Part shown: positions 45,400 through 64,000 of the stretch, one piece after another
Layout of the letters: each line of letters opens with the position of its first letter
Position numbering within the stretch: the first letter of the stretch is position 1
Source: an uncultured Fibrobacterota bacterium
GTDB lineage: Bacteria > Fibrobacterota > Chitinivibrionia > Chitinivibrionales > FEN-1185
Length of the DNA: 64,000 nt
Assembly (NCBI GenBank): GCA_963729895.1
Contig: CAVSQB010000009.1
Location: 1 to 64,000 of the forward strand
Direction of reading: 5' to 3'
Position numbers and translations under genes: made by a program
Notes under the pieces: generated by a model
The model's input: the letters and a program-made list of their open reading frames with translations, nothing else
Told to the model about the DNA's origin: nothing
Database searches by the model: none

Positions 45400-45466
45400 G
45401 GACATTCCATCCTGTCCATCCGCTCTTTTCGTCCGCAATGGGGAATGCCGCACCACCAAAGGCCAC

Positions 45467-46315
45467 TTAGAGGCCTTTATCCTCAATTTCCTTGATCTGC
45501 GCATAGCTGAACACGGGCCCGTCCTTGCAGACGTATTTGCTTCCCATGTTGCACCTGCCGCATTTGCCGATGCCGCAACTCATCTTCCGTTCCTGGGACG
45601 TGATGATGGTCTCCGGCGAAAAACCGAGCGTCAGCAACGGCGGGATGGTGAATTTGAGCATGATGGGCGGTCCGCACACAATGCAGGAGGCATTTGCGGA
45701 TGATGGGGCGACCTGGCTCACCACCGCAGGGACAAAACCTTCGCGGCCTTTCCACGATGCGTCGCCTTTGTCGACGGTAATGTGGGTCTGAACATCTTTG
45801 CGCTGCTGCCATTGCCGGAGCTCCGGTTTGTACAGGAGCTCGCCCGGGCTGCGCGCGCCGTAGATAACGGTGATGGCGCCGAACTGCGTGCGAACGGAAT
45901 CATCCAGCAAATAACGGATGGTCGCCCGCAGCGTGGTGAAGGCAAATCCGCCGCCGACGATCACGACGTTCTTTCCGGTCAGGTCTTTGAGCGGAAAGCT
46001 GTTTCCCATCGGGCCGCGCAGGCCGACGATGTCGCCCTCCGACAGGTCGTGCAGGGCATTTGTCACCACGCCGGTCGGGTAGCGTTTTACCGTGAATTCA
46101 ACATACCCTTTGTCAAGTGGTGACGAGGCTATTCCTATGGGGATTTCGCCCGCGCCGGGCACCGACAGCATGGCAAACTGGCCGCACTCGTGGCTGAAGC
46201 CGTTGCCGTTGCAGAAAACAAGGCGGAACGTCTTAAGGTCTTTTTCGTCGTTTTCAACGACTATTGTCTCGATGCGCGCCTGCACCGGGACATAGGGATT
46301 GCCGCTCGTGCTCAT
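45467..46315 (-). CDS. FlxA/AsrB-like FAD/NAD(P)-binding [2Fe-2S] subunit
   Basis: GQFAML, GEIPI.IAS, RGPMGN, GGG, CGPPIM, ERKMSCGIGKCGRC, CKDGPVF. Confidence 0.85.
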   Translation of the reverse strand: MSTSGNPYVPVQARIETIVVENDEKDLKTFRLVFCNGNGFSHECGQFAMLSVPGAGEIPIGIASSPLDKGYVEFTVKRYPTGVVTNALHDLSEGDIVGLRGPMGNSFPLKDLTGKNVVIVGGGFAFTTLRATIRYLLDDSVRTQFGAITVIYGARSPGELLYKPELRQWQQRKDVQTHITVDKGDASWKGREGFVPAVVSQVAPSSANASCIVCGPPIMLKFTIPPLLTLGFSPETIITSQERKMSCGIGKCGRCNMGSKYVCKDGPVFSYAQIKEIEDKGL

Positions 46316-47319
46316 GAATTCACCTTGGCTATGGTCTCTCTTATGTCAATATTGCTGGGGCAGTGCTCCACGCAGCGGCCGCACCCGACGCAAAACACGG
46401 CGCCGAAGTTCTCGGGAGCATACGAGAACTTGTGCATCACCCGCTGGCGCATGCGCTCGCCTTTTCTTGCACGCGGGTTATGGCCCGAGGCCTCGCGCGT
46501 AAACGAAGGGAACATGCACGCGTCGTGCAGCCGGATTCGCGCACTCGCGCTCCCCCGCTTTTCCTCGTACAAATCGAAACAATGACAGGTTGGGCACAAG
46601 AAGGTGCATGCGCCGCAGCTCAGGCACGTCTCGGCGAGCTCCTCCCAGAACCGGGAGTCGTTTCTCTTCTCCAAAGCTTTGGGGGCACCGCTCACGGCGA
46701 CTGTGGAAATCCGTTTGGCAGATTCCGACTCCTGCCTCTTCTTGTTCTGCAATTCATGCGCCGTCGGCGCACGGAATAAAGCGCTGTTCTTCTTGAGAAA
46801 GGCCTCGCCCTTTTTCGTTACCGGCTCAAACAGAAGCGACGCGGCCTGGCCGGCCGCCGCAATATCCGCCCCCGCTGTTGCGGACGGGCCGCAGCCCGTG
46901 GACATGCAGAAGCATGCCTCGCCGGGTTCGCTGCAGGCGAGGGAAATCACCAGCGCACTGTCCCTTCTGGCCTGATAATACGGATCCGTGTACGCGGCGT
47001 CGCTAAACACTTTGTCAAGGTACGCAAGCGCCTGCCCGTCGCAGGGACGCACACCGAAAATCACGCTTGCCTGGCCGCGGACCGGTTCTTCGGAGACCTT
47101 TGTACCGTCGAATCTGGTGATCACTTCGCATTGCGGAAAAAATTCCCGCTTCGGAGGCAGCTTGAAATTGGCGTAGTCCAGCACGATGTCGCTCTTCGCA
47201 GACAACTCGCCCAATACCGTTCCGTTTTCGGTGGCCACCGGCCCCAAGGCCTTGCCCTGCTTGAGCATGGCCCCGACGAATTTCTTGAGGTTCTTCTTGT
47301 CCAGCGCAACGGAAACCAC
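46312..47319 (-). CDS. FlxB/AsrA-like 4Fe-4S dicluster protein
   Basis: FGVRPCD, DPYY, CFC, CLSCGACTFLCPTCHCF, CVGCGRCVEHCP; GTG start with GGAGG. Confidence 0.85.
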   Translation of the reverse strand: MVSVALDKKNLKKFVGAMLKQGKALGPVATENGTVLGELSAKSDIVLDYANFKLPPKREFFPQCEVITRFDGTKVSEEPVRGQASVIFGVRPCDGQALAYLDKVFSDAAYTDPYYQARRDSALVISLACSEPGEACFCMSTGCGPSATAGADIAAAGQAASLLFEPVTKKGEAFLKKNSALFRAPTAHELQNKKRQESESAKRISTVAVSGAPKALEKRNDSRFWEELAETCLSCGACTFLCPTCHCFDLYEEKRGSASARIRLHDACMFPSFTREASGHNPRARKGERMRQRVMHKFSYAPENFGAVFCVGCGRCVEHCPSNIDIRETIAKVNS

Positions 47320-47320
47320 T

Positions 47321-48235
47321 CTATTTTTCCTCCGGATCGGTAATGAAACACTGGCTGTCGTCCTGTGCGAACGTGTTGAGCATAGGCACCTCGTCACCGG
47401 CCGTTCCCGGCACGCTGCCGAACAGCTCCTGCGCATCGCACACAAGTTTCTGGGTGAACCGGCGCAGGTCTATTCCCATGGGACAGGCATTGACGCATGC
47501 GTCGCATGCAACGCAGCGGCCGGCCTGATGGAACATTCTCCCCATGTGGAACACGATGGTTTCAGAAAGCTCGTTGGCCGGAGACACCCACGACGGCTTT
47601 CTCTGGTCCGCAAAGCATGTTTTGCAATAGCAGTTCGGGCACGCCTCGCGGCATGCGTTGCACCGGATGCACTTTGAGATTTCTTTGACAAAGGCCTTCC
47701 ACCGCTCTTCCGAAGACTTTCGCGCGAACGCCTTGACGCGCTCATATCCCGGCTTTGCCGGCTTCCGGCTTTCACCGGCTATGGTTATATCAGCATTCGT
47801 AACCGTCGGGCTCACGCATTCCTGGCAGGCGCGGGCGACTTCTTCCTTCTTGGGCTTTGCGCCTTTGTTCGAGGCAGCCATTCCGCTGCACGGCATGCCG
47901 ATAACAATGAGATTCGCCTTGGGCACCTGGTTTTCCTTCACAAGACCGGAAACCGACCGGCTGTCGCAGCCCTTGGCGATAATTGCTATGTGCGGGGGTT
48001 TGTACCCGTCTTTGGGTCGTGCCGGTTTTTCAAAAAGGCTTGGCAGGAATGCGGCCAGATTCGCCGTGCAGAAGCCGTTCCAGACAAGATGCTCCACGTC
48101 CGCCGCGCTGCGGGCAAAATACGGGCGCGATGAATTGGGAAGGGACCCTCTTCTGAAGCCCACGACCACGTCCACCTTCTTGTCGTCGAACAGCCTCTTC
48201 GCCGCCGCTTTCATCTTTCTTTCTTGGTCCTGCAT
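47321..48235 (-). CDS. FlxC-like 4Fe-4S protein
   Basis: KGCDSRS, GMPC, CIRCNACREACPNCYC, GRCVACDACVNACP. Confidence 0.82.
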   Translation of the reverse strand: MQDQERKMKAAAKRLFDDKKVDVVVGFRRGSLPNSSRPYFARSAADVEHLVWNGFCTANLAAFLPSLFEKPARPKDGYKPPHIAIIAKGCDSRSVSGLVKENQVPKANLIVIGMPCSGMAASNKGAKPKKEEVARACQECVSPTVTNADITIAGESRKPAKPGYERVKAFARKSSEERWKAFVKEISKCIRCNACREACPNCYCKTCFADQRKPSWVSPANELSETIVFHMGRMFHQAGRCVACDACVNACPMGIDLRRFTQKLVCDAQELFGSVPGTAGDEVPMLNTFAQDDSQCFITDPEEK

Positions 48236-48265
48236 CCTTACTTCTCTCTTGCTGTCAATGTTACG

Positions 48266-48718
48266 TTAACAAGCGTTCGCTGCGGCTCTTTCTTTCCTGG
48301 CTATCTTCTTTGATGTCGTAAGGCTGCGAACGTCGTTCACCACCTTTTCGATGAGCGAAGCAAAACGCCCGCCTTCCGAGGCCGACACCCATGAAAACTG
48401 CACCCGTTCCGGCTCGATCCCCAGATATTCCAGAAAGCTCTTGAGCATGGCGAATTTACGACGCGCGACCAGGTTCCCGGAAATGTAATGACAGTCTCCC
48501 GGATGACAACCCGAAACAAGAACGCCGTCGGCCCCTTCCTGGAGCGCCTTGATAATGTAAAGAGGATCAACCCGGCCCGAACACGGTACGCGGATCACAC
48601 GCACGTTCGCCGGATACTGCAGCCTGCTCACGCCGGCAAGGTCCGCCCCGGCATAGGAGCACCAGTTGCACAAAAAGGCGACAATGGTCGGTTCTCGAAT
48701 TTCCGTTGATTTAGTCAA
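48266..48718 (-). CDS. mvhD: MvhD/FlxD-type [2Fe-2S] subunit
   Basis: FLCNWCSYAGAD, RVPCSGR, GCHPGDCHY..GN, WVSASEG. Confidence 0.9.
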   Translation of the reverse strand: MTKSTEIREPTIVAFLCNWCSYAGADLAGVSRLQYPANVRVIRVPCSGRVDPLYIIKALQEGADGVLVSGCHPGDCHYISGNLVARRKFAMLKSFLEYLGIEPERVQFSWVSASEGGRFASLIEKVVNDVRSLTTSKKIARKERAAANAC

Positions 48719-48739
48719 TTACTCTCTCCTCAAAAAGGC

Positions 48740-48812
48740 TTCACCACGGAGACAAACATCCAACACGATTTTGCTCTTCTTCTTCTCTGCGTTCTCCGTG
48801 CCTCCGTGGTGA
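48740..48812. repeat. gene-less element with inverted TCACCACGGAG-type arms
   Basis: TTCACCACGGAGAC ... TCTCTGCGTTCTCCGTGCCTCCGTGGTGA between hdrA and mvhD. Confidence 0.7.
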
Positions 48813-48819
48813 TTTTACT

Positions 48820-51800
48820 TCATATCGTTGCGAGCATGCTCAATATCTGCTCGTTCCTGAACCCGTTCAGGTCTATGGCACCCGCTCTGCACGATGCCGC
48901 GCATGCGCCGCACCCTTTGCATAGCGCCTCGTTGACAACTGCAATGCCCTTCACCGGATCGAGCTCTACGGCGCCGTAGGCGCATACGGCCACACAGGTT
49001 CCGCACCCGCTGCACATGTCCGCCCGGATGGTTGAGATCTTTCCCTCGGACTCAATTGACTTCTTAGAAAGCACGGTGGCCGCCCTCCCTGCCGCCGCGC
49101 GCGCCTGCGCAATGGTCTCCCCGATGTCCTTGGGATAATGGGCCAGGCCGCACACAAACACGCCGTCGGTGGCGAAATCGACCGGCCGCAGCTTGACATG
49201 CGCTTCGAGAAAGAAGCCGTCGGATTCAAGCGGCACCTTAAAGAACTGGGACAGCGCCTTGTTGTCGGGATTTGCAACGATGCCCGCGCTGAGCACCAGG
49301 AGGTCGGGCTTTATCTTTACGGTCCTTCCAAGGATCGTATCGTTGACCGACACAACAAGATCGTTCCCGAGTTTCTTAACCTCAGGTTTTTTGGCTGCAT
49401 CAAACCGGATGAATAGCACGCCCTTCTCGCGCGCGAGCCGGTAATATTTCTCCCGCAAACCATAGCTTCGGATATCCCTGAACAGAAGGTAAACCGCAGT
49501 TGCGGGACTCCGCTCTTTGATCGCTATGGCGTTCTTGAGCGCGTTGGAACAGCATACGCGGCTGCAGTAGTCGCGCGTTTCATCGCGGGAGCCGACGCAT
49601 TGAATCATCACAACTGATTTCAGATTGCCGATTGCGGATTGCGAATTGTCGGCCGCGGTCTGTTCATGGTCCGATCCCGGGTATAGCATCGCTTCGAACC
49701 GGCGCTGGGTAATGATCCGTTCATCCTTGCCGTAAAGGTAGTCTGCCGGCTGAAGCTCATCGGCCCCGCTGGCGACAATCACGACTCCGTGATCGATTGG
49801 CGCACCGTTGCCTTCGAGCTCGGTGTGGAAATTACCGACATAGCCGGATACTTTCTTGATCTTCGAATTCAAGTGCGTCTTGATCTTCGGGTGATGCGTC
49901 ACGTTCTCAATCATATGGCTCAACTCGGGTCTCGTCGCTTTTCCGGAAAGCGTTGAGCGCACGTGCAGCAGGTTGCCGCCGAGCTCGCCTGTTTTCTCCA
50001 GCAGGGTGACGTTGAAATCCTGATTTGCGAGGTCGAGGGCGGCCGTCATGCCCGCAAGGCCGCCGCCGATGACCAGCGCGCCTTTGGTCACTCCCATGCT
50101 CTTTTTATACAGCGGCGCGGCAAGCTTCACTTTCGCAACGGAGGCGCGAACCAGATCGCAGGCCTTGCGCGTCGCGTTTGCGGACTCTTTCTGGTGCACC
50201 CATGCACAGTGTTCGCGGATATTGGCGAAATCAAAAAGATACGGATTAACACCGGCCTCTTCGAGCGTCTTTTGGAACAGCGGCTCATGGGTGCGCGGGG
50301 TGCACGCAGCCACCACAAGCCTGTTGAGCCTGTGCTGCTCCACTGCGGCCTTGATTGCCTTTTGTGAATCCTGCGCGCAGGAAAACATGAGCTCACCGGC
50401 GAATTTCACGCCGGGCAGGCTTTGAGCGTAGTGCACCACGGCCGGGACATCCACAACGGAGGCTATGTTGATGCCGCAACGGCACACGTACACGCCTATC
50501 CTCGGCGGCTCACCGCGCAAATCCTTCTGTCGGGGGAGATCTACCTTTATCTCCTTGACCGGCACATTGCCAAGCGTTGATGCCGCAGCCGACGCAGCGC
50601 CGCTCGCCTCGATTACCGATTCGGGAATGTCCTTGGGCCCGCTCACGCTGCCGCACACAAAGATGCCTGCACGGTTTGTGGAAACGGGTTCCATTGTGTC
50701 AACGCTCACGAAACCGGCCGCATCGATCCGGACGTTCAGGCTGCCGGCGGCGGCCATGGACGACACGGACGGTTGAATGCCGACCGACAGCACGAGCATG
50801 TCGAATTTCCGGGTGGAGACTTTTCCGTCCTGCGTGATGTAATGAATGGTGAGGTCGTTGGTGACAGGGTCGCTTTCCACGGACGCAATGCGACCGTTGA
50901 TCAGCGTGGTGTCGTGCCGGTCCCGAGCCTTGTCGATAAACCGGTCGAAACCCTTGCCGTATGCGCGTATGTCCATGTAGAAAATGGTCGTCTTCGCTTT
51001 TGGCAGGTGCTCCTGGGTGATGATCGCGTCCTTTGCAGCCTGCATGCAGCAAATTGCCGAGCAATGTTCGTTTCCGGCCGAGATGTCCCTTGAGCCAACG
51101 CACTGGAGTATGGCTATCCTTGCCGGCTCTTTCTTGTCCGACGGCCGCAGGATATGTCCGCCCGTTGGGCCGGACGCGCTCAGAAGCCGTTCGTATTCGA
51201 TGCTGGTGACCACGTTGGGAAACACGCCGTATCCGTATTCGCCCTTGAGCTTCGCGTCGAACTCGGTGGTTCCGCAGGCAAGGATCACCGATCCCACATC
51301 GACGGCCATCGCTTCTTCTTTTTGTGTAAAGTCAATGGCATTGGTGCCGCACGACTTCTGGCACAGGCGGCATGTGCCCTTCGTGAGATACAGGCATTTT
51401 GCGGCATCAATAACCGCAACCGCGGGAACAGCTTGCGGAAAAGGAATTCTTATGGCCTTGGTCTGGGACAGGCCTTTGTTATAGGGATCGGGAACCTTGA
51501 CGGGGCACTTGGTAACGCAGATACCGCATCCGGTGCATTTACTTTCGTCAACATAGCGTGGCCGCCTGCGAACTTTCACGGTGAACCTGGGCGGCTCGCC
51601 CTCGATCCCGGTGACTTCGCTGTTGGTCATGATGTGCAGGTAGGGATGACCGCCTGCCTGGACGAGTTTGGGCGAAAGGATGCACATGGCGCAGTCGTTG
51701 GTGGGAAACGTCTTGTCGAGTTGCGACATGCGCCCGCCGATGGATGGCCCGGTTTCCACCAGAAACGTTTCAATGCCCATGTCGGCAAGATCCAATGATG

Positions 51801-51849
51801 CCTGGATCCCCGCTACGCCGCCGCCGACCACCATCGCCTTTTTATGCAT
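48820..51849 (-). CDS. hdrA: heterodisulfide reductase subunit A-like protein (tandem two-FAD form, 1009 aa)
   Basis: GGGVAG, LDKTFPTNDCAMC, inserted ferredoxin domain, QCVGSR..CS.ICC twice, ACTPRTHE, NIREHCAWVH, GGGLAG, C-terminal CSGCGTC/CKGCGAC. Confidence 0.92.
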   Translation of the reverse strand: MHKKAMVVGGGVAGIQASLDLADMGIETFLVETGPSIGGRMSQLDKTFPTNDCAMCILSPKLVQAGGHPYLHIMTNSEVTGIEGEPPRFTVKVRRRPRYVDESKCTGCGICVTKCPVKVPDPYNKGLSQTKAIRIPFPQAVPAVAVIDAAKCLYLTKGTCRLCQKSCGTNAIDFTQKEEAMAVDVGSVILACGTTEFDAKLKGEYGYGVFPNVVTSIEYERLLSASGPTGGHILRPSDKKEPARIAILQCVGSRDISAGNEHCSAICCMQAAKDAIITQEHLPKAKTTIFYMDIRAYGKGFDRFIDKARDRHDTTLINGRIASVESDPVTNDLTIHYITQDGKVSTRKFDMLVLSVGIQPSVSSMAAAGSLNVRIDAAGFVSVDTMEPVSTNRAGIFVCGSVSGPKDIPESVIEASGAASAAASTLGNVPVKEIKVDLPRQKDLRGEPPRIGVYVCRCGINIASVVDVPAVVHYAQSLPGVKFAGELMFSCAQDSQKAIKAAVEQHRLNRLVVAACTPRTHEPLFQKTLEEAGVNPYLFDFANIREHCAWVHQKESANATRKACDLVRASVAKVKLAAPLYKKSMGVTKGALVIGGGLAGMTAALDLANQDFNVTLLEKTGELGGNLLHVRSTLSGKATRPELSHMIENVTHHPKIKTHLNSKIKKVSGYVGNFHTELEGNGAPIDHGVVIVASGADELQPADYLYGKDERIITQRRFEAMLYPGSDHEQTAADNSQSAIGNLKSVVMIQCVGSRDETRDYCSRVCCSNALKNAIAIKERSPATAVYLLFRDIRSYGLREKYYRLAREKGVLFIRFDAAKKPEVKKLGNDLVVSVNDTILGRTVKIKPDLLVLSAGIVANPDNKALSQFFKVPLESDGFFLEAHVKLRPVDFATDGVFVCGLAHYPKDIGETIAQARAAAGRAATVLSKKSIESEGKISTIRADMCSGCGTCVAVCAYGAVELDPVKGIAVVNEALCKGCGACAASCRAGAIDLNGFRNEQILSMLATI

Positions 51850-51852
51850 GGG

Positions 51853-52320
51853 TTATTTTCCGACCTTCGCCTTGGTTTTCTTCGCAACAGGTTTTTTTCC
51901 CGCAACCGCACCCTTCACCAGTTCACGCCTCAGCGTCTGCGCCTTCTTGTCGAACTCACCCTCTTTCGCAAGCATCTCCGCCGGAGCAAACCCGTCCCGT
52001 ACGGCCATGTGCCGGAGCGCGCGCATGACATCGGTAAAATTCACCTGCTGGGGACACCGGGCATAGCACCGGTAGCACATCATGCACAGCCAGATCGCGG
52101 GCGACGCCAGAACTTCCTGACGCATGCCGTAGAGCACCTTGCGGATGATGGTCCTGCAGTTGTACTCCTCGTCGATGTTCGTGACGGGACACCCGGCCGC
52201 GCAGGTGCCGCAGGCGAAACATTTCGTGATGTTCGCCCCGCCGGGCATGAGCGCCACTTCGTCCCGGAAGGTAGGATCGAGTTCTTCTACGACTATGACC
52301 TCTGAGTTACTTTTTGTCAT
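51853..52320 (-). CDS. hdrC: heterodisulfide reductase subunit C-like 4Fe-4S protein
   Basis: CFACGTCAAGCP, IWLCMMCYRCYARCPQ. Confidence 0.85.
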   Translation of the reverse strand: MTKSNSEVIVVEELDPTFRDEVALMPGGANITKCFACGTCAAGCPVTNIDEEYNCRTIIRKVLYGMRQEVLASPAIWLCMMCYRCYARCPQQVNFTDVMRALRHMAVRDGFAPAEMLAKEGEFDKKAQTLRRELVKGAVAGKKPVAKKTKAKVGK

Positions 52321-52359
52321 GATCAATCCACCTCTTGTATTTCTCAGAATTCCGCTTTT

Positions 52360-52431
52360 CAATCTTCAATCGACAATTCTTCCAGGGATTTTCACTCAAT
52401 CCGCAATCTACAATCTAAAATCTGCAATTCT
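52360..52431. repeat. heptamer tandem repeats (CAATCNN)
   Basis: CAATCTT CAATCGA CAATTCT and CAATCCG CAATCTA CAATCTA AAATCTG CAATTCT between metV and hdrC. Confidence 0.75.
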
Positions 52432-52432
52432 T

Positions 52433-53125
52433 CTACGCCTTCGGCCCCATCCCTGCAATGCACTGATCTTCGCGCACCACTTTCCGTGCACCGCCGTCAT
52501 TTGACGTGGACCAGTCCTGCGGAACTGCGAGCGACTCAAGCATCGAAACTTTGTTCAGCGCCTTTGCCCGATCGTAGATGAGCTGCCACGCGCAATCCGT
52601 TTGGTCGCTCACTTCGCATTTACCGTTTCTGGAACTGCCGCACGGGCCGTTCAACTGCCGTTTGGAGCAACGGGTGATGGGACAAATTCCAAAGTACTGG
52701 CCCAGCCGGCAATTGCCGCAGCCCGCGCACTTCTCGGCCCACACTCCTTGCGATTCAAGAATTCCCATGAACTGCGTGTTGAGGCCGGGATACACTGCGG
52801 TTTTGGGAAACCGTTCGGCAAGCGCCTGGACCCCTGCACCGCAGCCGAGCGACAGGACCGCGTCGTAGTCGCCGACCCGCTGGCTCAACACGTCGATGAA
52901 CGCGTCTTCGCACTGGCGTTCGATGGTACACTCATGCACCACCACGCTTTCGCGTCCGGCAAGCTTGAGCGACATACGCAGCGCGGAACCTATGATGCCG
53001 GTCTCGCGCTCGCCTCCGGCAAGACATACGGTGACGCAGGTGCCGCAGCCCACAACGAGCACGCGCTTGTAGTCCTTTACCATGTCGCGAATTTCCGGAA
53101 TCTTCTTACGGTCGGCAACGATCAT
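52433..53125 (-). CDS. metV: MetV-like protein (methylenetetrahydrofolate reductase C-terminal domain family)
   Basis: GCGTCVTVCLAGG, RQCE, GCGAGVQ, CAGCGNC, GICPITRCSK..LNGPCG, CAWQLIY. Confidence 0.88.
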   Translation of the reverse strand: MIVADRKKIPEIRDMVKDYKRVLVVGCGTCVTVCLAGGERETGIIGSALRMSLKLAGRESVVVHECTIERQCEDAFIDVLSQRVGDYDAVLSLGCGAGVQALAERFPKTAVYPGLNTQFMGILESQGVWAEKCAGCGNCRLGQYFGICPITRCSKRQLNGPCGSSRNGKCEVSDQTDCAWQLIYDRAKALNKVSMLESLAVPQDWSTSNDGGARKVVREDQCIAGMGPKA

Positions 53126-53604: not shown

Positions 53605-53634
53605 TTTCGTATTTGTCCTGTCAAAAGAAAACTC

Positions 53635-53761: not shown

Positions 53762-53774
53762 ATCTTATGTCTTT

Positions 53775-56700: not shown

Positions 56701-57095
56701 ATGCATTCGCCATCGGGCTTTTTCTCAAACGGCGTGGATGTCACGCCGAGAGATGCGGCGAATTCCGCGAGTTTCTTCGATTTCGGCGCTTCGGCAAGAA
56801 GCAGCTCAAGAATGATCTTCCGGTTCTCCCTGACACCGGCCGTGTCGGTTCTTACCGTCATGCCGTTTTCCACGGGGTAGTTGCATGACGAAACCTGTTT
56901 GGGCCCGCGGGGAGTTTCCAGTTCCACAATGCAAACCCGGCACGCGCCGATTGGTTCCATGCCCCGGTAATTGCAAAGCGTTGGTATGGAAATTCCCATC
57001 TGCCGCGCCGTATCCAGGATGGTTGTGCCAGGGGATACCTCGGATGTGCGTCCGTCAATGGTGATGCCGATCTTGTCTGGAGCTGATGTTTCCAT
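53775..57095 (-). CDS. fusion: NuoG/HydA-like N-terminal Fe-S module plus HdrA lacking its first approx. 115 residues
   Basis: IPTLC..GACRVC..SSC, CILCGLC, CQVCGAC; then PQAVP, QCVGSRD, SCTPRTHE, NIRDQCSWVH, GGGVGG, C-terminal ferredoxin. Confidence 0.85.
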   Translation of the reverse strand: METSAPDKIGITIDGRTSEVSPGTTILDTARQMGISIPTLCNYRGMEPIGACRVCIVELETPRGPKQVSSCNYPVENGMTVRTDTAGVRENRKIILELLLAEAPKSKKLAEFAASLGVTSTPFEKKPDGECILCGLCVKVCGDLMGRGAISMFGRGAKREVLPAYDEKSEQCQVCGACDFVCPTGASDHTHVATIAAKKHYTAYNQYLEARPNIDMAHPQAVPRVPAIDRKTCVHLTTGECGLCAKVCGAGAIDYEQEETVRELDVGAVLLTPGFSAFDPMRRIEYGSGFDANVIANTQFERLLSAAGPTQGHVRRPSDNTTPKSLAFIQCVGSRDSKMCNDYCSSVCCMAATKEAILAKQHEPDTAVTVYYMDIRAYGKDFDRYYNRAKEMGVSYVRCRPSSVEQVNDTKNLKITYMGEDNRCITAEHDLVVLSLGLEPSASLKEQIERFNVMVNRWGFVGTGELSPLETSRPGVFVGGALSEPKDIPDTVMQASAVAAKAMALLAPARGTRVKTKIYPPERDVTDEPPRVGVFICHCGSNIASVVDVEAVVQRTRKLPYVVLAERNVYTCADDTQNQIKDKIIKHRLNRVIVASCTPRTHEAIFRDTLRDAGLNPYLLEMANIRDQCSWVHSAEPEKATEKAKDLVRMTVGRTVGLLPLVESTVPVKNAALIIGGGVGGMTAGLSIADQGYQVHLVEKENILGGMARDIHETLDKSDVSAFVSSLIERVASHPRIKVYLHSTVKKVDGHVGDFTSDIVTPEATLKVEHGVVILASGARELKPKSFGYGKIDKVITQLELSGRIARNELALPDKSTIVMIQCVEQRNDERPYCSRVCCTTAVKNALLLRKRYLKAKILVLYREMRTYGFREAAYREAREKGIMFIRYDDKRLPDVSTDAGLTVRVTDKILGRELIMTPDLLVLAAPIVARDDRQELSDLLRVPLNADGFFLEAHVKLRPVDFASEGLFLCGTAHAPKFISETIAQANAVAARSASILSRKVMPVGAQTAWVDPAKCIACMTCVHVCPYLAPQIGKDNKAEVQGAVCMGCGSCTSSCPAKAITLHHYLDVQILGAINSLLAGSFEEKPAETMYLEQVGVAQPRWKK

Positions 57096-57096
57096 G

Positions 57097-58839
57097 TTAT
57101 GCTTTTTTCATTTCGCACACGCCGGCCGGACATTTCCGTCCCGCGATGTGCATGTCGAGATCGTCCCGGAAATGGAGCAGCGCGTTTGTCACCGGACCGG
57201 ACGCGGTGGTGCCGAGCCCGCACACGCTTGCGGCGTTCATTGCCCTGCTGAGCCGCTCGAGCTGTTCGATGGTTTCGGCATTACCCTTTCCCTCGCAGAT
57301 CCTATTCAACATGCCGTACATCTGCCTGGTGCCTTCCCGGCACGGCGTACACCTGCCGCACGACTCGTCCACAAAGAACCCGAGCAAGAATCGCGTCATG
57401 TCAACCACGCAGGAATCGGAGTCCATCACGATGATGCCGCCGGTCCCCATATTGGCGGACTTTCCCGGCACGTCCTGCGAGTCTATTGCCAGGTCGAGCA
57501 TGGACGGCGGCACGCAGCCGATTGACGGCCCGCCCACCTGCACTGCCTTGCATGCCTTATCTCCGCGGATGCCGCCTCCCATTCCGTAAATCATGTCACG
57601 CAGGGTGATCCCGAACGGCACTTCCACCAGTCCGGAAGTTTTTACCGACCCTTCGAGGGAGAAAATCGTCGTGCCGGTCGTCGTCTTCGATCCGATGGAG
57701 GCGTACCACTGCGATCCCCTGGTAATAATCGGCGCAACGCTTGCCCAGGTCTTGACATTGTTCACAACCGTCGGCTTGCCCCAGAGACCCGCGGTCACGG
57801 GAAACGGCGGCCTGCCGCGCGGCTCGCCGGAATGGCCTTCAATGGATTCGATGAGCCCGGTCTCCTCGCCGCACACGTATGCGCCCGCGCCGCGGCGCAC
57901 GCTCAGGCGGAAACTCCAGCCTGAACCGAAAATATCGTCGCCGAGTATCCCATGCTTTTCCGCTTCCGCAATTGCGTGTTCAAGCGTGGTGATGGCGAGA
58001 GGGTATTCGCTGCGGACATAGACATATCCCTGCCTCGCGCCTATCGCGTAGGATCCGATGATCATGCCCTCGATAATCGCGTGCGGGTCGCCTTCGATCA
58101 CGCTGCGGTCCATGGAGGATCCGGGTGCGCCCTCGTCCGCATTGCACACGACATATTTCACATCGCCTTTCGCGTTCCGCGCGAACCGCCATTTCTGGCC
58201 GGTGGGGAAATACGCGCCGCCCCGCCCGCGCAGGCCCGAGGCCGTGATCTCGTCGAGCACGTTCTCAGGTTTCATCGACGAAAGCGCCTTCTGCGCTCCC
58301 CGGTATGCTCCGCGTGCGATGGATTCTTCTATAGACATCGGATCAATGGAACCGCAGTTCCGCATGATCACTTTTTTCTGGTGCCGGAAGAAATCGAGCT
58401 TTGACCATTCCGGAATTCCCTCTGCCGCCGGGCTCGAACCGTAACAATGGACGTCACCGGTGGACACATGCTCTTCAGAGGAGAACCTGCCGAGCGGCTT
58501 TTCGCCGCCGAAATTGCCTTTTGTGAAATATGCCGTGAGCACGGAACGGGTTTTCCGGGCCGTCATGCCGCCGAAGCTCACACGCGGGCCGCCCGGCATA
58601 ACGATGTCGAGCAGGGGCTCCTGGCTGCAGAAACCGATGCAGCCGGTGCGCGACACGGTGGCGTCGGCCTTACATTTCTTTACAGTTGCAAGCGCCGCCT
58701 CCTCCACTTTGCGCGCACCCATGGCAAGCCCGCAGGTGCCGGACCCGATGAGGATCTTCAGCTTCTTCGGATACAGCGAGGCGCTGCCGAGAGCCGCAAG
58801 CCTGTCGAGATCGACCATGGTTTTCACCGCAGTGCTCAT
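57097..58839 (-). CDS. NuoF/HydB-like FMN/NAD(P)H-binding subunit
   Basis: GRGGAYFP, CNADEG, GAGAYVCGEET, NNVKT, ESCGRCTPCR, CGLG; no C-terminal ferredoxin domain. Confidence 0.9.
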   Translation of the reverse strand: MSTAVKTMVDLDRLAALGSASLYPKKLKILIGSGTCGLAMGARKVEEAALATVKKCKADATVSRTGCIGFCSQEPLLDIVMPGGPRVSFGGMTARKTRSVLTAYFTKGNFGGEKPLGRFSSEEHVSTGDVHCYGSSPAAEGIPEWSKLDFFRHQKKVIMRNCGSIDPMSIEESIARGAYRGAQKALSSMKPENVLDEITASGLRGRGGAYFPTGQKWRFARNAKGDVKYVVCNADEGAPGSSMDRSVIEGDPHAIIEGMIIGSYAIGARQGYVYVRSEYPLAITTLEHAIAEAEKHGILGDDIFGSGWSFRLSVRRGAGAYVCGEETGLIESIEGHSGEPRGRPPFPVTAGLWGKPTVVNNVKTWASVAPIITRGSQWYASIGSKTTTGTTIFSLEGSVKTSGLVEVPFGITLRDMIYGMGGGIRGDKACKAVQVGGPSIGCVPPSMLDLAIDSQDVPGKSANMGTGGIIVMDSDSCVVDMTRFLLGFFVDESCGRCTPCREGTRQMYGMLNRICEGKGNAETIEQLERLSRAMNAASVCGLGTTASGPVTNALLHFRDDLDMHIAGRKCPAGVCEMKKA

Positions 58840-59744
58840 GAGAATTGTTCCAGTATCGCGTCCATATCTTCGGGATCAACCTTGCCGAAGCTCACGTCGT
58901 CGATGCGCATGGACGGCGACAAGGCGCACAGGCCCAGGCAGCGCACGGTACGCAAGGTAAAGCGTCCGGTCGTGTCGGTTCCGCCGTCGCTCACGCCGAG
59001 TTTCTTTTCGAGAAGAGAGAGCAACGCGCCGGAATGCTGCGAGTGGCAGCTTGTGCCGCTGCATACCTGGATAACGTGGCGCCCGGCCGGCTCGAACCTC
59101 ATCTTGTCGTAAAAACTCGCCACCTTGAGGGCGCTCGCCAGCGGAATGGCGAGCCGCGACGCAGCGTGTTCCACAATGGGGCGCGGCAGAAAGCCGTAGG
59201 TCCTGTTGGTTGCCTCGAGCACGGGCATCAGCGCGCCCGCATCACCCTGGTGCTTTGCAATGATATCCGTCAGAAATGCCTCATCTTTTTTGTCAAGTTT
59301 GGCGGCGGGCTTTGGTTCCGTCACGGTCCTTGGAATGTTTCGCACCGGGCATCGCTCTATGCAGTCGCCGCAGCCGGTGCATTTGTCCTGGTCAACGAAG
59401 CGCGGCCTGGTTCTCACGGTTGCCTTGAAATTCCCAGCCTCGCCCTCGAGTTTCACCACCTCGGACATGGTAATCACGTCGATGTTCAGGTCGCGCATGC
59501 AGGCGACAACCTTCGGTGAAATGATGCATGTGGCGCAGTCGCCCGTGGGAAATGTCTTGTCGAGCCGCGCCATGTTTCCTCCGATGGTGGCGCTCTCCTC
59601 AACAAGATACACGTAGAACCCTGCTGCGGAAAGATCCAACGATGCCTGAATGCCCGCGATCCCGCCGCCGCATACAAGCACGGCGCCTACAGGCTCTTTC
59701 TTGGCTTTAGCCGGGACCGGTTCCTTAAGAGTTTCCGCGATCAT
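58836..59744 (-). CDS. fusion: HdrA N-terminal FAD-binding segment plus NuoE-like [2Fe-2S] domain
   Basis: GGGIAG, LDKTFPTGDCATC, CTGCGDCIERCPV; then LMPVLE..YGFLP, VCSGTSC, CLGLCALSP. Confidence 0.85.
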   Translation of the reverse strand: MIAETLKEPVPAKAKKEPVGAVLVCGGGIAGIQASLDLSAAGFYVYLVEESATIGGNMARLDKTFPTGDCATCIISPKVVACMRDLNIDVITMSEVVKLEGEAGNFKATVRTRPRFVDQDKCTGCGDCIERCPVRNIPRTVTEPKPAAKLDKKDEAFLTDIIAKHQGDAGALMPVLEATNRTYGFLPRPIVEHAASRLAIPLASALKVASFYDKMRFEPAGRHVIQVCSGTSCHSQHSGALLSLLEKKLGVSDGGTDTTGRFTLRTVRCLGLCALSPSMRIDDVSFGKVDPEDMDAILEQFS

Positions 59745-59786
59745 GACGTTTTGTCCCTTTTTGTTCCGTCAAAAGAAATGCAAGAC

Positions 59787-59905
59787 TCACCGCAAAGACA
59801 CAAAGGTCGCAAAGGAATGCAGAATTGTTACGTCAAGAAAGTTGACAATATGCTGCATTTGCTCTATTTCCAGTTTTCTTTGCGTCCTTCGCGCCTTTGC
59901 GGTAA
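59787..59905. repeat. gene-less element with inverted CGCAAAG arms
   Basis: TCACCGCAAAGACACAAAGGTCGCAAAG ... CTTTGCGTCCTTCGCGCCTTTGCGGTAA. Confidence 0.85.
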
Positions 59906-59979
59906 ATCTCCTCTTCCGAACGATCAATTTCCAGGATCTTTCCCTTCACCGGTAAAAGCCTAACGTACTCTCCGGTACT

Positions 59980-60009
59980 TCTCTGTGTTCTCCGTGTCTC
60001 CGTGGTGAA
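59980..60009 (-). repeat. TCACCACGGAG-type arm (partner degenerate)
   Basis: Reverse complement TTCACCACGGAGACACGGAGAACACAGAGA, 11 nt after the stop at 60021. Confidence 0.7.
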
Positions 60010-60020
60010 TCCTATTCCCC

Positions 60021-62648
60021 TCATTCTTCCGTCTCTTCCCCGGCCGTCTTGCTCTTCGGCATCACCTTGCGATAGACCGCACCCGGCTTTTTCACAACAC
60101 CGCCGACCGTGAGAAGATCCCGCTCTATTTGAATATCAAACAGCCGCTCGTTTTCCTGCAGATACGGCAGTAGAAGCTTCCAGTCCTCATTCGTGAAGCG
60201 CCCGAACATGCCGCCGTTGAGCTGTTCGTTCACGAGGGTACGCTGAGGGTCGCGCAGGTAAATCGCCCCGCCCGAGGCCAGCGACAGCAGGTTGCTGCCC
60301 GGGTACGGGAGGTCGAGTCCAACAATGTCTCCGTTGTCTTCAACGCGAAGCCCATTGACAATTGCAAATCCGCCGCCCGCCAGCGGGTCGCCGGCCATGA
60401 ACGATTCCGCGAGAAAGTCCAGCGCGGTGCCATTGATCACCACCTTCGGCTTTCCCACGGCGTTGATCATAGGCCTGCCGGCCGCGTTACCCATCACGTA
60501 GATCTCTCCGCCCTTTGCGCCGTACAGGAATGTCTGGCCGACGTCTCCGTACACCACCACTTTCCCGCGCTTGGAAATCTGGCACAACTGGTCCTGCGCG
60601 TTTCCATGAACATAGGCCTCGAGCCCGTCGATGCCGGAGCCCAGATAGTCGCCCGGATTGTCGTAACAGTCGACTCGAAGTCCGTCTGTTGCGGGGCCAA
60701 AGCCCGCGGCGTGAAATCGCGTGCCGCGGGAATTGTAATGCACGATATGCCGCCATCCGAGCTTGTATGCATCAACGGCAAGGTGCGCATCGCAATCGTC
60801 GCCCTCGGCCTGGAAACCCGTTGCATCAATAAGAAGCGTTGTCTCACCTTCGTGCGGGCCGCGGAGGGATTGCCGTGTGTCAAACGTAATGCGGCGGCAC
60901 GCGCTTGCGGCTTCCCGGCCGATGCCGGGCTGCACCGAAAAGATTGTTTCCAATCCGCTTCGAAGCGCCGCAACCACCGAACTGCGTTTTTTGTCGCCCG
61001 TGGGATACCGGCGGTCGATTGCCAAGGTGAGCGCCTGGATGCCGAACGCCGGTTCGTCTTTCGCACAGCTTGCTGCAACCTGCTCCGCGCACCAGCGCAG
61101 CCGGTTGTAATCCATGGCACGGATGTTTTCGCGCAGGTACTCGAACATCATCTGCGGATTGTTGTCCTGCAGGGCCTGCGATATCGCCGCAGCATCGGCA
61201 TCTTTACTTGAAGGAACCGTCACCGGAATCGAAAAATCGCAATGCGCCTGTCCGGGCCGCGTTCCCACCTGCTGGCCGAATTTGTTGGTAACGTTCAGGG
61301 TGTAGTCCGGCGAGGTTCCGTTGTGCCCGTTGCCCGACGGGACAACGTTCAGCAGGAAAGCGCCTCCGTCCGTCGAACTGCCGCCGCGCGCGTTCCAGTA
61401 CATGTCGGCAATGGGCGAAAACCGCGAATCCTCGCGCGCCAGACTCGCCAGCGTTGCGTCGATGGCCTGCTTCTCGGAACAGATGAGCCCGATGGAGACT
61501 TTGCCTTCCTGAAGCGCAAACACCTGAGGACGCAGCATGGCCGTGTCGGTGATGCCGAGCAATTGAAATCCCATTTTATCAAGATTGCGCGCGATGATGA
61601 AAAACCACGGGCCGTCGGGCGACGCATGGATCTGCGCGGCCTGGATTTCTTTGTATACTCGCTGTTTTTCCACGGGCAGCCGGTCGAAATCGAGCTCGGT
61701 GGTGGGCGCGAGCGATTCTATGATGTATTCCACCGGATACTTGTACACGCGGTTCATGAGGTCGAACAGCATGATGGACGCTTCGGTGTCGGTCAGGAAC
61801 TGCGGGAACAGGTTGCGCTGCGCGAGATATTCGCACACCGAAAGGTAATTTGCGAAGTCGCCGTTGTGGACGAGCGCCTCGTTCATGCCGATAAACGGGT
61901 GGCAGCCGCCCGGATGCCACACGCGGCCGCGCGTGGGGTACCGCTGGTGCGCGATCCACACGTGCGCTCGCGAGTCTTCCATGCGGTAATACTGGACCAC
62001 GGCTTCGGCGTATCCCACCACCTTGAGAATAATCAGATTGCGCGCATGCGAAAGCACGAATGCGCGCTTCTCGCCGAGTGACGCGTAGAATCGGTTGTTG
62101 AGCTTGCTGGAATTCTGGAACACGAACTCGTCTTCGATCTCACGCGGCTCAAGGCCGGTCAGTTTCTTCTCGTCTGCAAACTTTGCGAGCGCATCCTGTT
62201 TTGCGCGGACAAAGTAGCGCGCCACGTCGGGCGGCTTCACCTGCAACAGCGGTACGTCGCGATAATCGCTCACCGTGGGAATGATGCCGCCCTGGTCTAT
62301 GGTGAAAAACGGCTCGATGCATTCCTTCTCAACCTCGCCTTTAGCACCGGCATCGAGGAGCGCGACCTGCAGGCAGTAATCCTCTTCGAGCACCGACCTC
62401 GACACGCCAAAATCCTCGGGCACGAGCCCGCAGGCGGCAATACCGCCGCCTTTGCCGTTGCCGCGGTTGCGCATCTGGATGCTCGGCTCGTAAATGTGCT
62501 TCCCGCGCACCGGGATGGTACAGGCGAAACCGGTAACGCCGCATCCGCCTTCGGCTTCCTGAGGTTTGCCGATCCATTCGCCGGAAGGCCGGAGGCCGTC
62601 GCGGCTGCGGATGAGGGCTTCCGCCCGGTCAAGAGACGAAACCGTCAT
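60021..62648 (-). CDS. glutamate synthase-like protein: class II amidotransferase domain fused to GXGXG beta-helix domain (GltB domains 1+3)
   Basis: GGCGV nucleophile, HQRYPT, HPF, HNGD, TDTE, DGPW, LRP; C-terminal GDYLGSG, GNAQDQ, GDVGQ, GNAAGR, SGGAIY. Confidence 0.85.
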   Translation of the reverse strand: MTVSSLDRAEALIRSRDGLRPSGEWIGKPQEAEGGCGVTGFACTIPVRGKHIYEPSIQMRNRGNGKGGGIAACGLVPEDFGVSRSVLEEDYCLQVALLDAGAKGEVEKECIEPFFTIDQGGIIPTVSDYRDVPLLQVKPPDVARYFVRAKQDALAKFADEKKLTGLEPREIEDEFVFQNSSKLNNRFYASLGEKRAFVLSHARNLIILKVVGYAEAVVQYYRMEDSRAHVWIAHQRYPTRGRVWHPGGCHPFIGMNEALVHNGDFANYLSVCEYLAQRNLFPQFLTDTEASIMLFDLMNRVYKYPVEYIIESLAPTTELDFDRLPVEKQRVYKEIQAAQIHASPDGPWFFIIARNLDKMGFQLLGITDTAMLRPQVFALQEGKVSIGLICSEKQAIDATLASLAREDSRFSPIADMYWNARGGSSTDGGAFLLNVVPSGNGHNGTSPDYTLNVTNKFGQQVGTRPGQAHCDFSIPVTVPSSKDADAAAISQALQDNNPQMMFEYLRENIRAMDYNRLRWCAEQVAASCAKDEPAFGIQALTLAIDRRYPTGDKKRSSVVAALRSGLETIFSVQPGIGREAASACRRITFDTRQSLRGPHEGETTLLIDATGFQAEGDDCDAHLAVDAYKLGWRHIVHYNSRGTRFHAAGFGPATDGLRVDCYDNPGDYLGSGIDGLEAYVHGNAQDQLCQISKRGKVVVYGDVGQTFLYGAKGGEIYVMGNAAGRPMINAVGKPKVVINGTALDFLAESFMAGDPLAGGGFAIVNGLRVEDNGDIVGLDLPYPGSNLLSLASGGAIYLRDPQRTLVNEQLNGGMFGRFTNEDWKLLLPYLQENERLFDIQIERDLLTVGGVVKKPGAVYRKVMPKSKTAGEETEE

Positions 62649-64000
62649 TTCTTCCCTCTGTCGTTTTCATAGTCAAGATGCATCAGCAGGTCCGTTCTTC
62701 CCCGCAGGGCGGTGACCGATTCGAGGCCCAGGCGGTACAGTATGTCAACCAGGCATTCCCTGAAAGCGGTATGAAGGTTCACCAGGCGCTGCGTGCACCA
62801 CTCCACGGTGAGCAATTGCAGCAACTCCGGATCGGTGGTGCAGATTCCGCGCGCGCATCCCCGGCCGCTCTCGCAGCATCCGCAGCGGATGCACCCGAGC
62901 GAGACCAGCTCGGCCGTGCCGATCACGATCCCGTCGGCGCCCATGGCGATTGCCTTGGCAATGTCCCACGGATTGCGGATTCCGCCGGAAACGATGAGCG
63001 TGATCTCGTCGCGCACGCCTTCGGCCACCAGAAACTGGTGCACGTTGCTTATTGCGTATTCGATGGGCATGGCGATGTTCTTCTTGGCGATGTTCGGGGC
63101 GGCGCCCGTGCCGCCGTAGCTGCCGTCCATGTGCACAATGTGCGCGCCGGCGCAGTACGATCCTACCGCCACCATCTCCACGTCGTTGGGCGTGGAAACT
63201 TTTGCCGAAAGCAATGCGGTCCTGTTGACATGAGCGATCCAGTCGAGGTGCTTCTTGTGGTCCTCTATCGAATACACGCTGTGGAACGGAAACGGCGAGA
63301 ACAGTGACGTGCCCACAACAGCCTCGCGCATGGCGGCAACCGCAGGCGTATTCTTGTCGCCCAGAAGATGTCCGCCCAATCCCGGCTTGGCGCCTTGCGC
63401 GTATTTGAACTCAACGATGCGCGCGCGTTGGATGGTTTCTTCGCGCACGCCGAACAGGCCTGTGGCAACCTGGGTGATCATGTAATCTTTATAGGGAATA
63501 AAACGCTCCGGATATCCGCCCTCACCCGTGCAACTGAAGGTGTTCCACGCCTTGGCCGCTCTCACTTTACCCAGCTGCGCCCGGATATTGGTTGATCCGA
63601 ACGACATGCCTCCGCCGTACCATGGAACGTCGATCTTTATCTTCGGCCTCGAATCGTTCTTCCTCTTATTAAGGAGCAATTCGGTGGAAATGTCCTCGCG
63701 CCGGAGGCCGGACGGGATCTTGTCCGGAAAAACGAACCGCAGCCTGTCGAACCCGCCTCCCGAGTTTCCAACCTGGCTTTCGAGATGCGGAGGCGGCTGC
63801 CTGCCGGTTTCGGCCATGTGCCAGTTGCTCGCCAGAAGGTCCGGTGTCCAGCGATAATCGCCGAGTGTCTTGAAAACCTGATTCTCATCGAGCGAAAGCG
63901 CATGCTGCGGGCAGGTGGTGATGCAGAACCGGCCGGTCTTTTCGCAGTCCGGGCCTACACATTTATAATCGAACGGACGGATAACCTGACGGTAGCCAGC
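62645..64000 (-). CDS. glutamate synthase FMN-binding domain protein (GltB domain 2) with N-terminal Fe-S region, 5'-truncated by the window
   Basis: Frame open to the window end (CVGPDCEKTGRFCITTCP); GGMSFGS, TGEGG, AQGAKPGLGGHL, GGTGAAP, SGGIR, CIRCGCCESGRGCARGI. Confidence 0.88.
   Translation of the reverse strand, partial: AGYRQVIRPFDYKCVGPDCEKTGRFCITTCPQHALSLDENQVFKTLGDYRWTPDLLASNWHMAETGRQPPPHLESQVGNSGGGFDRLRFVFPDKIPSGLRREDISTELLLNKRKNDSRPKIKIDVPWYGGGMSFGSTNIRAQLGKVRAAKAWNTFSCTGEGGYPERFIPYKDYMITQVATGLFGVREETIQRARIVEFKYAQGAKPGLGGHLLGDKNTPAVAAMREAVVGTSLFSPFPFHSVYSIEDHKKHLDWIAHVNRTALLSAKVSTPNDVEMVAVGSYCAGAHIVHMDGSYGGTGAAPNIAKKNIAMPIEYAISNVHQFLVAEGVRDEITLIVSGGIRNPWDIAKAIAMGADGIVIGTAELVSLGCIRCGCCESGRGCARGICTTDPELLQLLTVEWCTQRLVNLHTAFRECLVDILYRLGLESVTALRGRTDLLMHLDYENDRGKK

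Follow-up and report, generated by a model that had tools for sequence, protein, structure and literature searches.

Where do the electrons go in a gene string that joins glutamate-synthase-like genes to heterodisulfide reductase (Hdr) genes? The question is raised by the first 64,000 nucleotides of contig C9 from an uncultured Fibrobacterota bacterium (genome 4.41 Mb, 96.7% complete). We call this whole stretch the window; the contig continues beyond it. An earlier note had described at least 13 co-oriented, often overlapping genes here. It had read them as a glutamate synthase (GltS)-like, Nuo, Hdr, MetV and Flx set lacking HdrB and MetF, with the FMN-containing GltS-like subunit as a possible electron sink. 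Genes were called from the open reading frame (ORF) listing, a Pfam scan and an NCBIfam scan, and all 13 are there, on the minus strand. Reading the contig past 64000 extends the run to 16 genes (contig 45467-66975), of which the window holds the 3′ four-fifths (Table 1).

The extension changes the answer. Two genes upstream of the FMN-domain gene (GltB-FMN), in the same tightly packed string and on the same strand, lies a MetF-like gene. The earlier picture of an operon without MetF does not survive this, and the GltS-like enzyme is therefore not the sole candidate sink. HdrB is indeed missing, from the operon and from the genome. We propose that the operon may encode one NADH-fed, probably electron-bifurcating complex of the Hdr type, with GltS-like and MetF-like modules as acceptors. 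Judged from gene content and its conservation, this reading stands, we think, an even chance of being right. The modules themselves (Hdr, MetFV, Flx, NuoEF and split GltS) are all known, and their conserved union appears to be new. Full-text searches of the literature outside subscription journals found no description of this Glt/MetF/Hdr operon.

Table 1. The 16-gene operon and its 276-nt gap, upstream end first. Window and contig numbering coincide up to 64000. GATase, glutamine amidotransferase; Ntn, N-terminal nucleophile.
Feature	Coordinates	Strand	Evidence and remarks
MvhD0	66556-66975	-	PF02662, 80 bits; beyond window
MetF-like	65627-66649	-	PF02219, 89 bits (cut-off 24); beyond window; start codon uncertain
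GltB2	64223-65620	-	Ferredoxin domain and partial PF01645 match; beyond window
GltB-FMN	62645-64207 (520 aa)	-	N-terminal 2x[4Fe-4S] ferredoxin and FMN barrel; PF01645, 284 bits; window cuts at 64000
GATase-GXGXG fusion	60021-62648 (875 aa)	-	Class II (Ntn) amidotransferase and beta-helix; PF01493, 38.2 bits (cut-off 32.5)
Intergenic gap	59745-60020 (276 nt)		Separates Glt-like from Hdr/Nuo genes
HdrA(N)-NuoE fusion	58836-59744	-	HdrA residues ~13-135, NuoE ~149-301 ([2Fe-2S]); PF01257, 134.6 bits, residues 159-301
NuoF, FMN and [4Fe-4S]	57097-58839 (580 aa)	-	PF01512, 160.8 bits; PF10589, 100.1 bits; NF010120, 398 bits (cut-off 389)
NuoG(N)-HdrA(C) fusion	53775-57095	-	Fer2_4 at 8-85, Fer4_7 at 131-186; HdrA2 model, 800 bits
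MvhD1, [2Fe-2S] adaptor	53122-53604	-	PF02662, 169.8 bits
MetV, Fe-S partner subunit of MetF-type reductases	52433-53125	-	PF12225, 113.1 bits
HdrC, 2x[4Fe-4S]	51853-52362	-	TIGR03290, 91.9 bits, under its cut-off of 160; no adjoining HdrB
Second double HdrA	48820-51849 (1009 aa)	-	HdrA2 model, 1001 bits in 3 stretches
MvhD2 (FlxD equivalent)	48266-48718	-	PF02662, 186.6 bits
FlxC-like Fe-S protein	47321-48235	-	Fer4 families only
FlxB-like Fe-S protein (sulfhydrogenase beta / AsrA type)	46312-47445	-	PF17179, 113 bits; ShyB model, 190 bits
FlxA-like NAD(P)H:FAD [2Fe-2S] reductase	45467-46315	-	FAD_binding_6, NAD_binding_1, DHODB_Fe-S_bind

Four gene pairs overlap by 4 nt (62645-62648, 58836-58839, 53122-53125 and 46312-46315). 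Past the window the spacing is 15 nt between GltB-FMN and GltB2 and 6 nt between GltB2 and the MetF-like gene, which itself overlaps MvhD0.

If the GltS-like genes belong to the Hdr machinery, they should travel with it. A GltB2 alignment scanned against a genome collection matched at least 583 loci. The best 80, the nearest relatives of GltB2, were analysed, and each count below includes only loci with enough flanking DNA. They span ten or more phyla, among them Fibrobacterota (Chitinispirillaceae, the probable family of this bacterium), Planctomycetota, Verrucomicrobiota, Desulfobacterota, Nitrospirota, Bacteroidota, Chloroflexota and Ignavibacteriota. Going by their labels, the carrier MAGs include Geobacteraceae, Syntrophorhabdus, Smithella and Sedimentisphaerales as well as Ignavibacteriota. 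A MetF-like gene lies directly upstream of GltB2 in 72 of 76 loci, and an MvhD gene lies upstream of the GltS-like trio in 73 of 73. GltB-FMN is present in 70 of 70 and the GATase-GXGXG gene in 61 of 62, with HdrC directly after the latter in 54 of 59. The core order MvhD, MetF-like, GltB2, GltB-FMN, GATase-GXGXG, HdrC(B)A, MvhD, MetV is kept in nearly all 80 loci. Beyond this core the sole recurrent gene family encodes a protein of ~290 aa (43/80 loci). The three copies scanned all carry two CCG domains, which identifies it as HdrB.

The order also holds at distance. We extended the loci of five distant genomes (Sedimentisphaerales, Bacteroidales, a deltaproteobacterium, Verrucomicrobia and Nitrospirales). 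Three show the full order MvhD, MetF-like, GltB2, GltB-FMN, GATase-GXGXG, HdrC, HdrB, HdrA, MvhD, MetV, followed by unrelated genes; the other two show parts of it in the stretches fetched. In four of the five, 5-30 nt separate the trio from HdrC. In the fifth, gene picking gave no HdrC ORF and tblastn finds an HdrC-like stretch. MetV follows MvhD in all five. Closer to home, the full-length 875-aa protein occurs in 9 of 41 genomes of the same order, and the loci of five of the eight other carriers were fetched (G003, G005, G033, G008 and G016). The whole string is present in the same order in G003, G005 and G033, with 14 of the 16 genes visible in G033, whose contig starts at GltB2. The synteny check that the earlier note had called for comes out strongly in favour of a link with Hdr: MetF-like, MvhD and HdrC accompany the Glt-like genes in nearly all of these 80 loci. 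The Glt-like proteins appear, from this conservation, to be part of the Hdr/MetV machinery and not chance neighbours. The family is common in anoxic soils, peat and sediments; for GltB2, the clusters formed at 90% identity number at least 7484, with 249 representatives reaching E <= 1e-30.

What could the trio catalyse? The 875-aa protein keeps the catalytic cysteine, Cys36, in GGCGVxGF after a 35-residue leader. That motif with its cysteine, together with HQRYPT, VHNGDFANY and TDTE, is invariant or nearly so in 60 sequences and also in a set of 30. These motifs are marks of class II amidotransferases. As in GltS, the catalytic cysteine follows a leader, the cleavage of which is predicted. The AlphaFold2 model (predicted local distance difference test score, pLDDT, 81.6) finds GltS alpha chains as its best Foldseek matches (7mfm_G, 1.4e-11), then GlmS and PurF, and the match spans GltS. 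A phmmer search of the 875-aa protein against PDB sequences gave no match, and hhalign of the family against the genome's canonical GltB aligns only the GXGXG part (GltB residues 1313-1459, probability just 20%). The protein carries the GXGXG beta-helix of GltS, and GltB-FMN carries its FMN synthase domain. GltB-FMN aligns to residues 857-1170 of Azospirillum brasilense GltS (PDB 2vdc). In this alignment the AQGAKPG...R loop retains its Q, K and R, the cluster cysteines (1102, 1108, 1113) are present, and there are extra cysteines besides. We take the Lys, Arg and Gln to be the 2-oxoglutarate-binding residues of GltS.

The central domain of GltS is missing: no operon protein reaches a full PF04898 match. 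GltB2 was considered for this role and rejected, as its model (pLDDT 72.9) aligns best to the FMN domain of GltS (Z 23, residues 782-1194). By that model GltB2 is a divergent second FMN-domain-like barrel. Its most conserved stretch, ~115-157, is poorly modelled and no counterpart could be placed for it; phmmer against PDB sequences gave marginal TIM-barrel matches only. Split archaeal GltS, we presume, also does without the central domain. In other lineages GltB2 is fused to GltB-FMN, or to a GlcD-like FAD dehydrogenase with Fe-S domains (1176 and 1218 aa). At L021/L022 (genome G016) and L023 (G008), an Hdr-less trio adjoins a 621-aa FAD_binding_4/FAD-oxidase_C and 4Fe-4S protein, which suggests a second, GlcD-type redox partner for the trio. 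Standing beside or fused to a GlcD-like dehydrogenase elsewhere, the trio would therefore be a catalytic module with exchangeable redox partners.

The MetF-like protein is divergent. It scores far below the genome's housekeeping MetF on PF02219 (323 bits for the latter). The equivalent of Glu28, presumably a functional residue of MetF, is kept in 68 of 70 sequences, and TRDRNR is invariant. MetV, MvhD, HdrA and HdrC of the type IV methylenetetrahydrofolate (methylene-THF) reductase are all present in the operon, the HdrC match lying under its cut-off. The housekeeping enzymes are encoded elsewhere: a canonical four-domain GltB (1548 aa) with GltD on contig C41, and a 296-aa MetF on C40. The Glt-like and MetF-like proteins of the operon are therefore extra paralogues. 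Around the housekeeping MetF (C40:28324-32703, L106), a 2217-aa PA14-domain protein precedes the gene and a phage-type integrase and a DDE transposase follow it.

How would NADH reach these modules? The earlier note had proposed that NuoEFG genes split one hdrA into two, and this is borne out by contiguous HdrA2 model positions across the two fusions. Residues 13-135 of the NuoE fusion cover model positions 132-256, and from 258 on the match is taken up by the NuoG fusion (NCBIfam). Against an intact 1036-aa HdrA, residues 6-135 of the NuoE fusion align to 1-130 and residues 171-1106 of the NuoG fusion to 116-1033. NuoE, NuoF and the N-terminal cluster region of NuoG are all recognizable. The NuoG-like part is limited to the first ~190 residues of its fusion (NuoG/HydA-type Fe-S domains at ~8-190), and the rest of a double HdrA fills ~200-1106. 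Of the five distant genomes, one has a 1036-aa HdrA and four have a long form of 1489-1530 aa. One long HdrA was scanned, and it carries a GltD/NfnB-like insert (Fer4_20 and Pyr_redox_2, residues 159-550) at the site where this genome has NuoE-NuoF-NuoG(N). With a GltD-like insert in one lineage and NuoEFG in another at the same position, NAD(P)H modules have evidently been swapped at one site. An HdrA split by NuoEFG is found in 16 of 54 assessable loci.

The downstream part of the operon adds a second HdrA, ~44% identical to the first. FlxA, FlxB, FlxC and an MvhD-like FlxD stand next to HdrA and HdrC, as in known Flx-Hdr sets, and HdrB is missing. The FlxC name follows what we take to be the subunit scheme of flxABCD-hdrABC. 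Relatives of FlxB align from residue 4-29 on, and the true FlxB start is probably later than that of the longest ORF. No CCG domain (PF02754; HdrB/HdrD) was detected anywhere in the 96.7%-complete genome, and two HdrB proteins of sister operons, used as tblastn queries, found no significant match (best E 0.048). The 276-nt gap lies where most relatives carry hdrC-hdrB. A decayed hdrCB in the gap was considered and rejected, as tblastn finds no HdrB or HdrC remnant there. In G003, G005 and G033 a gap is present at this place as well, of 113, 203 and 214 nt respectively. This operon is a derived 16-gene form, with neither HdrC nor HdrB following the trio, NuoEFG inserted in HdrA, HdrB lost and HdrC-HdrA-MvhD-FlxCBA appended. 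Judged by the position of FlxA, the full derived form also occurs in two Planctomycetota metagenome-assembled genomes (MAGs), where GltB2 and a 67-68% identical FlxA share a contig at a distance of ~19 kb, as here. A Spirochaetaceae MAG has a Flx/Hdr set upstream instead.

Complex modelling, which the earlier note had also suggested, was applied to MvhD0 with GltB2. The pair scored 0.48 (runs 0.41-0.55; best control 0.01), with at least 53% of contacts shared between runs and a partner pLDDT of at least 73. Of 157 solved complexes 116 passed the mark set for such scores, as did 2 of 215 mismatched pairs. Passing scores of 0.60 or lower came from just 18 of the 157 solved complexes and from both passing mismatches. 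Support for an MvhD0-GltB2 contact is weak, and we treat it as a hint.

Together these parts could form one soluble iron-sulfur flavoprotein machine built of exchangeable modules. GltB2, GltB-FMN and GATase-GXGXG would make up a split, glutamine-dependent GltS-like reductase, and the MetF-like protein and MetV a flavin reductase pair. An Hdr-type hub would consist of two double HdrA, three MvhD and a single HdrC, HdrB being absent. NAD(P)H would enter at two places, NuoE-NuoF-NuoG(N) inside the first HdrA and FlxABC. In this scheme NADH would be oxidised at NuoF and FlxA, and the electron pair split at the HdrA flavin, by homology to the bifurcating subunit of MvhADG-HdrABC. The high-potential electron would pass along Fe-S chains to the GltS-like FMN (glutamine + 2-oxoglutarate to 2 glutamate), to the MetF-like flavin, or to both, and the low-potential electron to ferredoxin. 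The association of the FMN subunit with Hdr proposed in the earlier note gains strong support from synteny, and its premise of an operon without MetF falls; the Glt-like module would be one of two sinks. A rough estimate from redox potentials makes the reaction thermodynamically feasible. The specific proposal of an electron-bifurcating glutamate synthase, in which HdrA would couple NADH oxidation both to the reductive amination of 2-oxoglutarate, a strongly exergonic step, and to the reduction of ferredoxin, is tentative; we consider it possible, not probable.

One further set of genes bears on the choice between readings. A cluster at C14:34440-44174 (L125) encodes carbon monoxide dehydrogenase and acetyl-CoA synthase (CODH/ACS) components: CdhD, CooS, two CooC-like ATPases and a 1172-aa protein in which ACS (CdhC and ACS_CODH_B_C) is fused to a CdhD-like part. 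The cluster suggests a Wood-Ljungdahl carbonyl branch within this genome. Within the order, ACS is found in all 9 genomes with the 875-aa protein versus 6 of 32 others; the genomes are kin, and these counts therefore lack independence. Carrier genomes outside the order showed ACS in 16 of 50 cases and in 0 of 4 (MAG completeness unknown). A requirement of the operon for the Wood-Ljungdahl pathway is unsupported by these outside counts. The operon appears not to depend on the pathway, and here it may serve it.

Several observations weigh against a single complex with glutamate synthase and MetF chemistry. The 276-nt gap splits the Glt-like from the Hdr/Nuo genes, and the two groups could therefore be transcribed separately here. 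Genomes G008 and G016 carry the trio without any Hdr or MetF gene, next to a FAD_binding_4 and Fe-S protein and GlmS, and from this arrangement the trio can apparently work apart from Hdr. Because the 80 loci are the nearest GltB2 relatives, linkage may be weaker family-wide. The operon is unnecessary for basic assimilation, canonical GltB/GltD and MetF being present. In GltB-FMN the canonical GEGGQ has become GLGGH, which 66 family members share without exception. In the MetF-like protein the Asp of LRGD, which we take to be another functional residue of MetF, is missing, and SGxHQ stands there instead in all 70 sequences. With these two changes, the substrates may differ from those of the name-giving enzymes. 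Finally, NuoF has no extra C-terminal Fe-S domain (Pfam), and any bifurcation would therefore sit in HdrA, by homology.

These points feed three other explanations. The genes could encode separate enzymes that share a locus and regulation and form no joint complex: a ferredoxin-dependent split GltS of the archaeal type, a Moorella-type MetFV/Hdr enzyme for the Wood-Ljungdahl pathway and a Flx-Hdr NADH dehydrogenase. The CODH/ACS cluster, the ACS counts within the order, the gap after the Glt-like genes and the trio's occurrence alone or fused to other dehydrogenases would all fit. Such an arrangement does not explain why, in nearly all loci, the Glt-like and Hdr genes separate MetF-like from MetV, which stand at opposite ends, or why an extra MvhD accompanies the trio in every locus assessed. 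ACS is also infrequent among carriers outside the order, incomplete as those MAGs may be, and there is no further recurrent neighbour gene. We consider separate enzymes unlikely. The substitutions in the substrate loop and in LRGD point elsewhere, to a trio and a MetF-like protein acting on imines or amines other than 2-iminoglutarate and methylene-THF, for example in an N-methylglutamate-synthase-like or other amidotransferase-coupled reductive amination. GltB2 as a divergent barrel with an unplaced conserved stretch, the low PF02219 score and the housekeeping GltBD and MetF are in keeping with this. The amidotransferase motifs, the 2-oxoglutarate-binding residues and the Glu28 equivalent are retained, however, and no recurrent nearby gene would make an alternative substrate. 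A change of chemistry is in our judgement quite unlikely.

The electrons could also run the other way. MetF-like/MetV would then be the donor (methyl-THF or another compound near -200 mV), with HdrA splitting electrons to the Glt-like sink at high potential and to NAD+ at low potential, the NAD+ being reduced at the Nuo/Flx or GltD-like module. The MetF-like gene always has an MvhD as its neighbour, which usually serves as the adaptor on the donor side, and at least one of the five distant genomes has an HdrA (1036 aa) without an NAD(P)H insert. The trio's GlcD-like, 2-hydroxyacid-type partners elsewhere would suit this too: a GlcD-like donor has a similar potential and is unable to reduce NAD+ alone. 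Under reversal a catabolic flux would be bound to nitrogen assimilation, whose flux is small; ACS was not seen in most carriers, and the sequence indicates no direction. We give reversal a slim chance.

Regulatory signals and flanking genes were surveyed as well. Over 44001-64000, 10 promoter-like sites (8.2 expected) and 22 terminator-like sites (24.6 expected) are at chance level, and none lies in the three larger gaps, the 276-nt gap included. An internal promoter within that gap may nevertheless exist. At this locus there are 10 two-mismatch sigma-54 sites versus 11.5 expected, and none lies upstream of MvhD0 in this genome; one sigma-54-type site, TGGAATAGCAATTGCT (contig 67960-67975), precedes orf203 and not MvhD0. 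Among sister loci, such a site lies no more than 350 nt from the first gene in 11 of 73, where ~2.7 are expected (background ~0.037 per 360 nt). The enrichment is modest and is owed to MAGs of Verrucomicrobiota and deltaproteobacteria. L101, L068, L096, L099 and Verrucomicrobiota L063, L070, L078 and L097 have sigma-54-type sites with 0-2 mismatches 97-182 nt upstream of a first-gene MvhD. Flanking the operon are orf203 upstream (contig 67252-67863; signal-peptide-like start) and orf277 downstream (window 44671-45504). Neither has a Pfam or NCBIfam match, and both are below the reporting threshold in G003, G005 and G033; they are not counted in the operon. Upstream of orf203 lies an ABC transporter that is transcribed divergently. 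The 1140-aa protein encoded at C9:69123-72545 (plus strand), which has Golvesin_C as its C-terminal domain, adjoins an ABC transporter ATPase. On the minus strand, 3′ of the operon and orf277, follow aspartate ammonia-lyase (42582-43985), HydF (41319-42578), HydG (39832-41322) and HydE (38195-39352). The last three are [FeFe]-hydrogenase maturation genes; Pfam and NCBIfam scans found no hydrogenase H-cluster domain in the operon genes.

If the bifurcating glutamate synthase proves true, nitrogen assimilation would return energy to energy-starved anaerobes, and the complex would supply a candidate for the long-unknown second acceptor of MetFV-HdrABC-MvhD-type enzymes. If the operon encodes one complex, an amidotransferase-coupled imine reductase would be a new acceptor class for Hdr-type bifurcation. 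Nitrogen assimilation would then be linked with ferredoxin energetics, and one-carbon metabolism possibly as well. The derived form would be a natural module-swap experiment. It exchanges the GltD-like insert for NuoEFG, dispenses with HdrB and adds Flx, and so narrows the essential parts.

The closest known system is the MetFV-HdrABC-MvhD methylene-THF reductase of Moorella thermoacetica and Sporomusa ovata, treated in PMC7325909, PMC9012536, PMC5736913 and PMC9430772. In the passage of PMC7325909 on this enzyme, NADH is the presumed donor and the second acceptor is still unknown. The operon shares MetF, MetV, MvhD, HdrC and a double HdrA with it, and HdrB too in 43 of the 80 related loci. 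Unlike it, the operon places a three-gene GltS-like module and a second MvhD between metF and hdr. Its MetF-like protein is divergent, the genome has no HdrB, and most carriers outside the order showed no ACS.

From GltS (GltBD and ferredoxin-dependent GltS; PDB 1ea0, 2vdc, 1ofd) the operon keeps an Ntn amidotransferase with leader and N-terminal Cys, an FMN barrel with Fe-S cluster, GXGXG, and an exchangeable electron-input subunit. It differs in having the GltB2 barrel in place of a central domain, a GATase fused to GXGXG, GLGGH for GEGGQ, and a position as a paralogue beside canonical GltBD. Electron input here appears to be Hdr/MvhD, not GltD, ferredoxin or FrhB. An FrhB-like subunit is part of a proposed F420-dependent form discussed, with split archaeal GltS, in passages of PMC8097209, PMC3087415 and PMC9012536.

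Desulfovibrio vulgaris has an NADH dehydrogenase/heterodisulfide reductase, FlxABCD-HdrABC (Ramos et al. 2015, as cited in PMC7282089; termed Hdr-IFO in a passage of PMC5736913), which is mirrored at 45467-52362 by HdrC, HdrA, MvhD (= FlxD), FlxC, FlxB and FlxA. Here HdrB is absent, the gene order is reversed and the set is appended to the Glt/MetF/Hdr operon. As for the split HdrA, a union of HdrA with NuoEFG-like subunits is found in class II benzoyl-CoA reductase (BamB-I). Related designs are HdrL of Desulfobacterium autotrophicum, an HdrA with an inserted NAD(P)H module (in a passage of PMC2702500), and the HdrA with NfnB/GltD insertions of anaerobic methanotrophic archaea (ANME) and methanogens (passages of PMC9012536 and PMC12054007). 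In all of these, as here, a pyridine-nucleotide module is joined to HdrA. Unlike HdrL and the NfnB-insert HdrA, this operon carries NuoE-NuoF-NuoG(N) as a complete set of genes, by which hdrA is divided in two.

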